Origin: Eledone cirrhosa
Taxonomy: Eukaryota
Reading direction: 5' to 3'
Assembly (NCBI GenBank): GCA_964016885.1
Contig: OZ024743.1
Span: forward strand, 255,440,001-255,504,000
DNA: 64,000 bases
Shown: positions 175 to 54,920 of the stretch, piece by piece
How the letters are laid out: each line of letters opens with the position of its first letter
Position numbering within the stretch: the first letter of the stretch is position 1
Notes under the pieces: model-generated
What the model was told of the DNA's origin: nothing
Databases searched by the model: none
What the model saw: only the letters and a program-made list of their open reading frames with translations
Position numbers and translations under genes: made by a program

Positions 175-385
175 TATATTCATTTATTATAGCTAAGCAG
201 TGAGAAGTTTTTCTCAGGAGTTTCACTTGTGCACTCACAGGATCATCAGACACGATGTCTAATGATCCTGCATGTGTGCAAGTTAAACTCCAGAGTAACA
301 AATCTCACTGCTTTGCCATTATAAATGAATATTTAAACTCTACTTTGATATTGAGTACATTTGCTCACATCTGTCAATAAGATAC
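175..385. mobile_element. Short non-coding fold-back element containing a degenerate type I hammerhead (Penelope-type tail)
   Basis: Inverted arms ~175-252 / 256-332 with apex CGA at 253-255. The minus arm reads CTGATGA-TCCTGTGAGTGCACAAGT-GAAAC-TCCTGAG. The plus arm reads TGT-CTAATGA...TAAAC-TCCAGA-GTA-ACA (stem I TGT/ACA). The tail matches 54840-54900. Confidence 0.65.
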
Positions 386-389
386 AATA

Positions 390-570
390 ACTGTTTCTGC
401 TTTAGGCACAAGGCCAGCAATTACCCAGTGCATTACTGGTACTTTATTTTATCGACCCCGTAAAGATGAAAGGCAAAGTCAACCTCGGCGGGATTTGAAC
501 TCAGATCGTAAAGGGACGTAACTATGCTGGAGAGCATGGCGTCCGACCCTCTACCGATACTGCCAATCCA
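390..570 (-). mobile_element. tRNA-derived SINE (Meta-domain-like family)
   Basis: Reverse complement has a Pol III A-box-like TGGCAGTATCGG, B-box GAGTTCAAATCCC and a TTTGCCTTTCATC..GGGGTCGATAAAATAAAGTACCAG body. More than 10 copies occur in the window. Confidence 0.8.
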
Positions 571-574
571 TAAG

Positions 575-1240
575 ACACAATAACAAGAACTAAGAAGACT
601 TGGGATGAGTGATAAAAGCTGAACTTGCACAATTGCACCTCTGGAAAGCAATGATACAGGATCAAGATCTCTGGCATTATGCAGTAATACAGAATACCTG
701 CCTTCCCATGTGCATGGATTGAAGCATACACCTTGTATGCACCACTTTCCACTCCCCCTTCCATACACCTCCACATCCTAACACTCTTCCCTTCCTCCAT
801 GTCCCTCCCCCTCTTGCACATCCCATGTCCTAACACTCCACCCATGCCCAAACACTCAGCTTCTCACACACATTCCTAGATCTACCTCCCAAATTCTCCC
901 ACACCTCCCTGTACACAAGTACCCTGGCCACACTGTAAAGTAGTCATGATGACAAAACGACAAAAAGTGCCCAGTAAAGTGGTTGTGTAGGTGAGACAGC
1001 AAAAAGCACCCAATCCACACTGCTGTAAAGTTATTGTGTAGGTGTCACAACAAAAGGCACCTAGCACACAATGTAAATATGGTTGGTGTTAGGAAGGGCA
1101 TCCAGCCATAGAAACCAAGCCAAATCCAGTTCTGTATGAGCAAGACACACTCATTTGATCTGGCTTGTCTCACAATGGAGCAACTCATCTAACCTATGCT
1201 AGCGTAGAAAAATGGATGTTAAACGGTAGTGAGGATGATA
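575..1240 (+). mobile_element. RTE LINE 3' fragment
   Basis: Degenerate RPRKTWDE-like end of ORF, GTTAGGAAGGGCATCCAGC motif and CATGCTAGC..AAAATGGATGTTAAAC tail shared with the RTE at 55283-58170. Confidence 0.7.
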
Positions 1241-1244
1241 ATAA

Positions 1245-1432
1245 TTGTTTCTACTTTTGGCACAAGGCCAGCAATTATCTAGTGTATTACTGGTACTTTA
1301 TTTTATCGACCCTGTAAGGACGAAAGGCAAAGTTAACCTCGGCGGGATTTGAACTCAGACCATAAAGGTCTGTAACTCTTTACTGCAAAGCATGGTGTCC
1401 GACTCCCTACCGATACTGGCCAATCCACCGCC
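1245..1432 (-). mobile_element. tRNA-derived SINE (Meta-like family)
   Basis: Near-full-length copy of the 390-570 family. Confidence 0.8.
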
Positions 1433-1529
1433 CTGAGGATGATAACAATATATGTATGTTTGTCTGTCTGTCTCCATATATGTATATCTGTATATTTATC
1501 TGTAGAATGGAGAATGATAGAGAATGACC

Positions 1530-51252: not shown

Positions 51253-52445
51253 TATTCAATTCTTTATCAATTTATAATCTTTTCTCAAAGGCACATATAC
51301 ACACACCTCTTTAAATTATACCCATCTTCCTACCTTACTTCAAAGGGCATTATACACTCTATAATACTTGTTTACTCATTACCCTCATTCTATCTTCACC
51401 TTGTAAAATCCTTCATAACATATACATTTGTTTTTTTGACGTTAGAATATTCATCCGCAATTATTATTTTTTTCTCTCCATCATCAAACTTTTTAATCTC
51501 TCCTTCTTTTGACGCTAGAATATTCATTCTTAATACATATTAACTCTTTCTTCGCACATATTATCAATTCCTTCAATATACAAACCTTAACTTCACATTA
51601 TTTTTCTCAAATCATCTAATACACAAACCTTAATATTTTTTTTAATACATATTAACTCTTTCTTCGCACATATTATCAATTCCTTCAATATACAAACTTT
51701 AACTTCACATTATTATTCTCAAATCCTTCAACACGCAAACCTTAGTAATTTTTTCTCTTCATTAATTTTGAAATTGCCATAATACTTATGAACATACACC
51801 TTTTTGACGTTAGAATACTCATCCGCAATTATTATTTTTTCTCTCTATCTTCAAACTTTTTAATCTCAATTTTTAATCTCAATACATATCAACTCCCTTT
51901 CTTTCCTCGTACATTTTTTTCCCTTCGTTAATTTTCAAATTCTTTTAATTTATACATTATCTTCCAACGGTTCTCAACCTCTCTATGTAAAACAATATAT
52001 CTTTTCTCAGTTATAAAAATTATCTCTTTCTCTCTATCACCCATCTCTCCCTCTCCACCTTCACTCTCATCTCCTCCCCTTTTTTCATCCTTTCCACCCC
52101 CCCCCTCTCTAAATAAAATTTTTTTTTTCCTCGTACATATTTTTCCCTTCGTTAATTTTCAAATTCTTTTAATTTATACATTATCTTCCAACGGTTTTCA
52201 ACCTCTCTATGTAAAACAATATATCTTCTCTCAGTTATAAAAACTATCTCTTTCTCTCTATCACCCATCTCTCCCTCTCCACCTTCACTCTCATCTCCTC
52301 CCCTTTTTTCATCCTTTCCACCCCCCCCCCTCTAAATAAAATATTTTTCCCAATATCACACATCAATCTAAAACTACTTTTCATATGTTGATTTAAAACT
52401 GCACTATCCACAAGTGTTTTTTAGCCTTCATATCATGTTCTCCTG

Positions 52446-52512
52446 TTTTATCTGATGAAAACACAAATATTATTGCATGATGATGTTTGTTTTTGAAATG
52501 CGCATAATAAAA
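52446..52512 (+). ncRNA. Type I hammerhead ribozyme, intact
   Basis: TTTTAT-CTGATGA-AAAC-ACAAATATTAT..ATGATGTTTGT-TTTT-GAAA-TGCGCA-TA-ATAAAA. Stem I is 6 bp, stem II is at least 11 bp, stem III ATGCGCAT is palindromic, and the triplet is AUA. Confidence 0.85.
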
Positions 52513-53335
52513 TACATGGAACTCCTTTAACCATCTTTTGATCTTATATATTATGTATACTCCAGTCCTACAAACTGTAGAGTGCTTCTTATCCGATATC
52601 TGCATTGCTTTATTGTACTACAATAAAACTCACCTCCTGCATATATATATATATATATATATATATGCACATTTATATTTGCATATAAATATGTGTATAT
52701 ATATATATGCCTTCATGAGTTTTATATCAAATAGTGATAATATTATCAATATTTGATCCAATTCGAAGCAAACAGCTTCATAATGTGTGTTTTAGACGAC
52801 TATCGTCATCCTTTCGTTCTAGCGTTAGCATAGAGAAACAATCGACAATCGTTTCAGGGTTATTGTCACTTGTCAAAGTTATGTATCTCTCCCTTTCCTT
52901 TTCTGCTACTCACCAGAACTCTTGAGAATATATAGTATTCTTTAAAGTATACATCGGCTGATTAGCCTAATTTGCATATTACTAGAAACCAAACCAGAAA
53001 CAATTCTGTATGAGTTAGTCATGGTCACCTGACCCAATGAGATGGATCTAGGATATCAAAACTAGAAATAGGTAGTAACATAACCACTTCATATAAGTCA
53101 ATATATCAATTTTCCATGATCAATCAACTCTCTGAATTGATCATAAAACAATAAGCTAATTGAGAACCTATCTGCAGCATTTGTTTTATTTTCATTGTTC
53201 ATTACAAACACACACATGTATATATGTTTATATATATATATATATATATATATATATATATATATATATATATATATATATATATATATAGTTATAGGAA
53301 TAACCAAAGAGTACTTAGAAATACATTGTTTTATT

Positions 53336-53382
53336 AGCTAACAGTGTTTCATCCATACACCATGGCAAGAATCATCTGAGCC
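53336..53382 (-). ncRNA. Degenerate hammerhead motif
   Basis: Minus strand GGCT-CAGATGA-...-GAAAC-ACT-GTT-AGCT (core U4 changed to A; stem I GGCT/AGCT). Confidence 0.4.
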
Positions 53383-54404
53383 TATAAACAATAATATATC
53401 AGTAGTTGCATGGTCCATCGAGCTGTGTCACCAGAACAAGGTTAAAGGACCAGCAGGTGTGGGGGGGGGGGGGGTCCCGAGGCCACCGCTATATGGAAAA
53501 AGACAGAATACATGATGCACATAATGTCATCAAATGTCTTAAAAATTTAAAAATTACACCAAAAATGTATCACTTAAATGGTGCAACAGATGATAAAGAG
53601 GTTGGGAGAGGGTAGCAAGGGATGAGTGAGGGTATTACTCAGCATGATCAGAAACAATAAGAAAATAATAAAAATATATAATAAAAAAAGTACAAAAATA
53701 CAGGGATAAGAAAAGAGATAAATATAAAAATACAAAATAATAAAGGAACAAAATGCCCAGAAACCCCCCCCCCCAAAAAAAAAAAATATAAGACAAACCA
53801 AAGCATAGATACATCAAAGCAGAAGCAGTGCAAAAAGAGGGTGCACAGGCAGATCAAGAGAGTTTGCAAGCATGAGTCTGTGAAAAGAATAGTTGGTTAG
53901 CAGTGGTGCAACCTTACATTTATGATAGTCCATATGAGGGCTGGTGTACTCCAATTATATCACCTTGTAACAGGTCGATTCTCCTTATCATATCTGCACC
54001 CTACGAACCACATCGATATGTTCCAGTTCTGAACGTTAAGTGAGATAACAGTTATACCTATAACGGCTCTGTAGTATACTAGTTATCCTACATTGAGCTA
54101 AAACCACACTGTCATACCAAGGGCAATATATCTGCATGTCTGGGCATATTGATATATTTGTCAAGGAAACTATATATATATATATATATATATATATATA
54201 TATATATATATAAATTATTCTGTAACTTGATTATGATATTTGATGGTAGCTTATGCGATGAGAGCCAACTACAAAATCAATAGCTCTCTCACCATGATGT
54301 CGTCGAAATCATCTCTTCAAGACTGTTTTGAGTTCGAACAACGTTAGTAGTCCCAACATAAACAGGTGGTTGCTACTACACATATATTCATATATATCTC
54401 TATG

Positions 54405-54731
54405 ACTTAGTGGTTAGAGCATTGGGCTTGCAATCGAAAAGTTGTGAGCTCAATACTCAGACCGGGTGATGTGTTGTTTCCTTGAGCAAGACACTTTATT
54501 TCACATTGCTCCAGTTTACTCAGCTGTAGAAATGAGATGATAGGGAATGGGGTCCCTATCATTCCACTACAAAGTGGTCGTGGAGCTGCCACGGCAAAAA
54601 AGCACCCTGCACTCACTGTAAATGAGGTTGGTGTTAGGAAGGGCATCCAGCTGTAGAAATCAAGCCAAAATCAATTCCCATCCCACCCTTGAAAGCAGGG
54701 AAAAGCGCACGTAAAATTATGATGATGATGA
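54405..54731 (+). mobile_element. CORE-like SINE with RTE tail
   Basis: Copy of 15102-15450. Confidence 0.85.
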
Positions 54732-54802
54732 TATGCACAAACACTCTCTCTCACATACATACACACACACACACTAACACACACACATATATATATATAT
54801 CT

Positions 54803-54920
54803 ATATTCATATTATTAAGGCTAAATATCAAGTCTTGTTACAGGATTCACTATTTAGCCTTAATAAAATGAATATTAAACTGTACTTTATTATTGAGTAC
54901 TCTTTTCTCTCAGCCACCAA
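54803..54920. mobile_element. Fold-back fragment of the 175-385 family starting at the predicted ribozyme cleavage site
   Basis: ATATTCATATTATTAAGGCTAAATA...TCTTGT-T-ACAGGA...TATTTAGCCTTAATAAAATGAATAT. The tail aligns with 298-360. Confidence 0.6.

Follow-up and report, generated by a model that had tools for sequence, protein, structure and literature searches.

Six short palindromic insertions in a 64,000-nucleotide (nt) stretch of the Eledone cirrhosa genome (GenBank assembly GCA_964016885.1, contig OZ024743.1, positions 255,440,001 to 255,504,000 of the forward strand; this whole stretch is called the window) appear to be 5'-truncated copies of Penelope-like element (PLE) ends joined head to head. 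Our favored reading, which we regard as probable, is that their apices lie about 30 nt after a TATA-like box, that reverse transcriptase (RT) likely ran off the start of an uncut RNA at that point, and that the two arms are likely separate cDNAs. A self-comparison of the window with microsatellites masked, used for fold-back detection, recovered all six palindromes at the positions given in a preliminary description of this DNA (centres 254, 23653, 24360.5, 30659.5, 50196.5, and 54839), and the division into four families proposed there was borne out: family A (apices at 253 and 54839), family D (23650 and 30655), family C (24360), and family E (50197). These six are among 10 clear nonmicrosatellite fold-backs in the window; the other four comprise a fragment of an RTE-like long interspersed nuclear element (LINE), two pairs of short interspersed nuclear elements (SINEs), and a long PLE with its junction in an open reading frame (ORF).

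We searched the genome (3.0 Gb, 1,796 contigs) with the 3' parts of the elements only, so that the 5' end did not drive the choice of copies, and kept the best 40 copies per family from 348 (A), 193 (C), 1,980 (D), and 1,302 (E) candidates. The A query begins near the predicted cut site, so that A arms ending 3' of the cut are undersampled. Subtracting four window copies and four duplicates from these 160 insertions left 152, with 100 fold-backs and 252 arms, whose ends were mapped by alignment. A whole-arm D search with junction bases in the query was kept out of the counts, and core-pattern samples of A and E, the first E pattern of which included junction bases, served only to find read-through copies.

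As the preliminary description had supposed, apices are not uniformly distributed: each of the four families has a hot spot far above background. RNA polymerase II promoters of the TATA/initiator type carry a TATA-like box about 30 nt before the start. In the four family references, the hot spot is preceded by a TATA-like motif that begins 30, 29, 30, and 31 nt upstream; such a motif is found at that distance from 2.8 to 4.6% of random reference positions. The idea was noted from C and D (29 to 30 nt) before the read-through copies of A (30 to 31 nt) and E (31 nt) were seen; one initiator-like word is also common to the hot spots of A and C. The arm reaching furthest 5' ends within TATA+25 to +37 in 60 of the 100 fold-backs (A, 11/17; C, 26/34; D, 11/23; E, 12/26). 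The best 13-nt window anchored on the ribozyme core holds 40 furthest arms and none of the 34 from C, and the best one anchored on the cut, located 36 to 48 nt upstream of it, holds 53 and none of the 23 from D. Among arms that reach TATA+26 to +38, those ending there number 22/26, 42/60, 14/36, and 23/24 in the four families, against 3.2, 4.1, 1.6, and 4.4 expected. Under a stricter null, in which the element is capped at the hot spot and two arms are drawn uniformly, the excess persists in A (p = 0.0016), C (p = 6e-8), and D (p = 3e-6). The TATA-like box is the one landmark that fits all four families, and for this reason the apex is likely the transcription start. In family E, the base before the natural G is itself G in 78 matches (hand count); T (34), A (25), and C (5) occur there among 100 listed of 107 other matches. 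Such an extra G is suggestive of a cap signature, with about two thirds of the G cases explained equally by arm overlap.

Another landmark 30 nt after an AT-rich box, for example a 3' splice site or a cut that the element's endonuclease makes in a resident pseudo-long terminal repeat (pLTR), might place the apex instead; we consider this quite unlikely. In its favor, TTTAG does lie at the hot spot in A and C, the intron of Drosophila Penelope ends at the 5' end of helix I (PMC4209133), and AT-rich pLTR DNA is a substrate of the anole endonuclease (PMC11167929). However, there is no AG at the hot spot in D and E, many C arms contain the AG plus the upstream Ts, and no common upstream exon is joined to the hot spot. 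As for a cut in resident DNA, the copies sit at unrelated (TA)n sites, outside resident elements.

The ribozyme does not set apex position. The preliminary description had proposed that the hammerhead fold, or the 5' end made by self-cleavage, stops RT and triggers snap-back of the cDNA, and the pattern behind this proposal is real: 92 of the 100 apices fall inside the motif span, and for A, D, and E the hot spot coincides with the 5' edge of stem I (about -8, -5, and -6 relative to the core). Such overlap is expected, because little of the short distance from start to tail is left uncovered by the motif; a single ∼200-nt segment accommodates promoter, ribozyme, and tail. In C, however, the hot spot is at +43, inside loop II, and none of the eight arms that reach the C stem I edge ends there. 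A 5' end created by cleavage is contradicted as the RT stop because no family shows an excess at the cut: ends within 4 nt of it number 2/47, 3/73, 1/52, and 3/59 in the four families (expected, 4.4, 3.5, 1.6, and 8.9), and just 4 of the 100 furthest arms end within 6 nt. The fold itself fares no better, given that early stops at helix 3' edges (30/100) do not exceed the 32.8 expected, that the stem I 5' edge would be reached only once the fold had been unwound, and that 22 of 23 arms reaching the motif in a fifth family (P, below) run through it. A secondary cluster in C, at a self-complementary stretch in the 3' strand of stem II, accounts for 9 of 13 early stops against 2.2 expected and would fit a stop at a helix; we read it as an overlap used in joining arms. 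Overall, we give the proposal that the ribozyme stops RT very little weight.

How the second arm arises can be judged from the relative reach of the two arms. In the 100 fold-backs, the short arm reaches furthest 5' in 24, the tailed arm in 23, and the two end within 10 nt of each other in 53. Each family has two fixed 3' ends, the tail tip and the tail base, and in 27 of 31 fold-backs of C and 16 of 23 of D the short arm stops at a single fixed base, this end being looser in the older families A and E. Simple snap-back, the second step of the earlier proposal, is disfavored because it requires the tail-bearing arm to reach furthest 5'; because either arm may reach further and the short-arm end is fixed, two cDNAs primed from both target ends are favored. 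We infer from these copies that two target-primed cDNAs were probably joined head to head. In twin priming of L1 elements, primers from the two target strands yield an inverted 5' part joined via short overlaps, and the product is a nonoverlapping inversion; PLE cDNAs differ in starting at fixed RNA sites and in usually copying the same stretch twice, which produces a palindrome. We did not find twin priming proposed for PLEs in the literature covered, the scope of which excludes supplements and the Terminon paper (PMC5850863).

Alternatively, the RNA start may set the apex while the second arm is the snap-back of a single cDNA, with later one-sided central deletions giving the asymmetry. This is unlikely in our estimation, despite having the near-symmetric fold-backs on its side, the self-priming proposed in PMC3846280, and arm overlap at 50 of 98 junctions. 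Of the other junctions, 9 are blunt and 39 carry added bases. Variants of the long arm are also mirrored in the short arm of the same copy (C, 10/40; D, 10/32; other copies, 4% and 11%), an observation that fits snap-back and two cDNAs alike because one RNA may be copied twice. Against snap-back with deletion, short arms end at one fixed base, the loop of a recurring intact E junction belongs to the tail-less arm in roughly half of the copies (by eye), and in P the arms made up of the tail tip only have nothing in common with the main arm in sequence. The idea that a natural hairpin upstream of the D core primes snap-back was rejected, the hairpin being missing from D read-through copies. The junctions of three copies (L025, L092, and L093) show repeated short jumps, and L093 switches inside the junction to a related subfamily sequence.

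On the favored reading of a promoter-anchored apex with two target-primed cDNAs, a TATA/initiator promoter in the pLTR would start transcription at the hot spot, and the PLE protein would nick both strands within (TA)n and prime one cDNA per end at two internal start sites that bound the tail. Use of the tail copy near the RNA 5' end would limit these cDNAs to 60 to 330 nt, stopping at or before the RNA start, and the two cDNA 3' ends would then be joined head to head via short overlaps or added bases.

The palindromes appear to derive from PLE ends, as the preliminary description had it. A head-to-head inverted, 5'-truncated copy is present in 100 of the 152 tail-picked insertions, and (TA)n lies at the ends of most copies (by reading copies, without a formal count). 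With window peptides that are putative PLE proteins judging by their motifs, tblastn gave matches at 7 of the 14 read-through loci of D and at 2 of the 7 of C; Pfam and PDB sequence searches with the same peptides gave no useful match. The suggestion that these insertions form a separate class of small retroelements did not hold up, because junctions differ from copy to copy and families C and D are linked through their read-through copies to putative PLE ORFs. Nor are they non-LTR retrozymes: copies are single or head to head, and head-to-tail tandem units with complete hammerheads are missing. New PLE copies often insert in the (TA)n ends of older PLE palindromes, giving nested stacks (L105, L119, L224, L235, and L100).

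Clustering of the apices might also have been inherited from a few palindromic master copies amplified whole, a scenario that we find scarcely credible. One E junction recurs often, and 14 of 30 A copies found by core pattern (L217, L219-L221, L224, L225, L230, L231, L235, L237-L240, and L243) have one junction. Those 14 also share arm-specific differences and flanks, so that this A palindrome is a passenger of a larger repeat, and they were left out of the counts; junction sequences in the tail-picked sample vary between copies, most clearly in C. The larger repeat that carries this fixed-junction A palindrome is dispersed; its copies have flanks in common, and part of it is CT rich and resembles a minisatellite.

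In the window itself, the furthest arm ends at TATA+29 to +35 in five of the six palindromes. The first A fold-back (positions 173 to 385) consists of a short arm on the minus strand (173 to 255) and a tailed arm on the plus strand (256 to 385) interrupted by a SINE at 386; its furthest end, TATA+32, is the 5' edge of stem I. The family A hammerhead 5' core, CUGAUGA, is on the short arm (243 to 249, minus strand), and the copy of this core on the plus arm (259 to 265) is degenerate. One D fold-back is at 30498 to 30985, where the short arm (30498 to 30653, minus) and the tailed arm (30654 to 30985, plus, starting at TATA+30) both end in (TA)n, with the core at 30659 to 30665, GAAAC at 30748 to 30752, and a predicted cut at 30759/30760. 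An older D copy (23330 to 23735) has its tailed arm on the minus strand, a short arm from 23653, and its furthest mapped end at TATA+31. In the E fold-back (50060 to 50262), the tailed arm is on the minus strand, the short arm spans 50198 to 50261, and the furthest end, TATA+35, is at the core start.

Two window copies bear on claims about where the apex sits in the ribozyme. The C fold-back (24305 to 24494; short arm 24305 to 24359, minus; tailed arm 24356 to 24494, plus; both ends in (TA)n) begins at the initiator-like A at 24356, a loop II position at TATA+29, and contains only the 3' hammerhead half (GAAAC, 24374 to 24378; predicted cut, 24396/24397). The earlier placement of its apex in stem II was mistaken, since the copy is without the 5' core and the apparent stem II is made by the fold-back itself; in C read-through copies, the apex position is within the ∼40-nt loop II of a U3-A8 core variant. 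The second A fold-back (54803 to 54928) is truncated near the predicted cleavage site, as described earlier. It was not made at a cleaved end: the short arm begins 3 nt upstream of the predicted cut and holds those three bases, so the template of this copy was uncut.

Type I hammerhead-like motifs are indeed present in the family copies, as judged from core letters and helices; confirmation by Rfam was not obtained. Rfam gave no hammerhead at the gathering score in the window and none among 150 listed of 234 weaker matches; with Hammerhead_3, whose cut-off is 48.5 bits, an intact A copy reached 13.6 bits, and an intact C copy received no Rfam hammerhead score at all. Because Rfam scores fall below the cut-off, the call rests on the core order (CUGANGA or UUGANAA, GAAA, UH) and on helices in family copies, several window copies being degenerate. 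The A motif has an 8-bp stem I, a CUGAUGA core, and a GUA cut; the D motif, a 5-bp stem I and a long (∼80-nt) stem II region; the E motif, a bulged stem I and a GUA cut; and the C motif, with its U3-A8 core variant and ∼40-nt loop II, is seen in read-through copies only. Helix cells are 97.6% paired in C, with one compensatory change among seven copies, and 76% paired in E, where covariation is not above that of shuffles. Monomer folds of A, D, and E do not yield the hammerhead. The usual G10.1-C11.1 pair is present in C and in the P motif, but most copies of A, D, and E have a pyrimidine mismatch in its place, which makes self-cleaving activity of the predicted A, D, and E motifs uncertain.

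Family P provides a long-copy control. It is very young and high in copy number, with 5,233 exact matches of one 22-mer and a tandem unit of ∼4,147 nt; two other genome-wide word counts, 17,810 and 6,017, are not comparable with this one or each other because the words are shared by different subfamilies. The window copy (11684 to 14684) has 1,281-nt inverted arms of 99.9% identity, a 380-nt loop, and a junction with an 8-nt overlap in the RT region, away from its hammerhead-like motif (14440 to 14471). In a sample obtained by pattern search (L276-L305), P shows two 3' ends 56 nt apart, with an ATG directly after the tail, and 4 of 30 arms abut an inverted tail-tip piece of 9 to 19 nt that is absent from the main arm (L284, L290, L291, and L293). 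Junctions are spread over more than 1.4 kb. The four short-copy families follow the TATA rule; P, in which long templates dominate, does not show it.

Several observations weigh against a promoter-anchored apex with separate cDNAs. A one-sided deletion at the palindrome centre after insertion could also give the two-way asymmetry of the arms. The 13-nt window was chosen after the data had been seen, 12 arm ends were corrected by hand, and E is not significant under the stricter null (p = 0.19). When all 252 arms are counted, the cut-anchored window holds 107 and the TATA window 106, even though the former misses D. There are only four families, and because the start coincides with stem I in three of them, family C alone carries the separation from the ribozyme. 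The TATA box is missing in a C-related copy (L232) and in a possible A read-through copy (L086), and P shows no sharp hot spot at the hammerhead-like motif or at its TATA run, its ends there being spread over +147 to +193. None of nine A and six E read-through copies had an ORF within 1.5 kb by tblastn with the window PLE peptides. The identification of the apex with the RNA start is deduced from motifs, and the Drosophila Penelope promoter is reported to be TATA-less and internal (PMC2377424).

PLEs as a rule show inverted copies with truncation, tails, and insertion in microsatellites (PMC8557442 and PMC8969392). Rotifer pLTRs carry a TATA box plus an initiator-like sequence, and their junction palindromes were explained by self-priming on an antisense template (PMC3846280), whereas our copy data favor two cDNAs from the sense template. 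The Eledone families thus resemble endonuclease-positive PLEs (PMC8557442 and PMC3846280) in the head-to-head truncated inverted copy, the single tailed arm, the microsatellite targets, the junction palindromes, and the TATA plus initiator-like motifs; they differ in tail length, ∼55 to 165 nt here versus 30 to 40 nt. The excerpt of PMC6431247 adds nothing further on junctions.

With the minimal type I hammerheads of PMC4209133, where pLTR hammerhead pairs lie on opposite strands 100 to 700 bp apart and the U3-A8 core variant is described, the motifs predicted here share the core letters, the unpaired base after A9, the palindromic loop III, the variant itself (family C), and opposite-strand motif pairs. 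Unlike those, A, D, and E have the mismatch at G10.1-C11.1, D has its long stem II region, and the C loop II holds the TATA-like box. In vitro, the anole PLE Poseidon cleaves AT-rich DNA on both strands, initiates at two internal sites between which the tail lies, and uses uncut RNA as its main template, ribozyme cleavage not being needed (PMC11167929). The two start sites, two-strand cutting, and uncut template would be alike here; the excerpt of that work does not address inverted junctions or the RNA start, both of which we read from genomic copies. Non-LTR retrozymes (bioRxiv 10.64898/2026.07.22.740005) are likewise noncoding, PLE related, and equipped with a type I hammerhead, but they are head-to-tail tandems with complete ribozymes, whereas the palindromes here are head to head, made anew, and often carry half a ribozyme. 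In the literature covered, again without supplements and the Terminon paper, we found no statement that a PLE apex lies at a fixed TATA distance or is tied to the transcription start. The kind of insertion is already known; the promoter-anchored apex would be new, and it can be tested.

Other repeats in the window include a broken PLE reading frame (36907 to 38116) that matches sequence upstream of families C and D and in which RT and GIY-YIG-like parts are presumed from motifs. The fold-back at 6067 to 6262, from an RTE-like LINE coding fragment, has no hammerhead; a second match occurs in 2 of 25 related loci. At 42583 to 42819 and 63206 to 63641, a high-copy SINE is present as inverted pairs, which may be chance neighbors or fold-backs. 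A minisatellite with ∼40-nt units, plus a long young inverted repeat pair of ∼890 nt per side, lies at 42820 to 43996 and 50330 to 52544.

How PLE inverted ends form and what the hammerhead does are open questions in the field, described as still undefined in PMC8557442. One tentative extension, more doubtful than probable, is that the promoter is built into the ribozyme, that short PLE palindromes are paired run-off cDNAs recording the start, and that the hammerhead is a switch that processes only read-through transcripts. In family C, the promoter would lie inside loop II, so that RNA from this promoter would be without half of the ribozyme and for that reason would not self-cleave, while read-through RNA from tandem copies would contain the whole ribozyme. 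The overlap of ribozyme and apex through simple packing is also a warning against reading such palindromes as a new element class. If the favored reading is true, the two start sites seen in vitro would be linked to genomic structure, and an antisense template would no longer be needed. Finally, if the apex marks where the RNA begins and the arms are separate cDNAs, thousands of genomic copies would map PLE promoters without RNA data.

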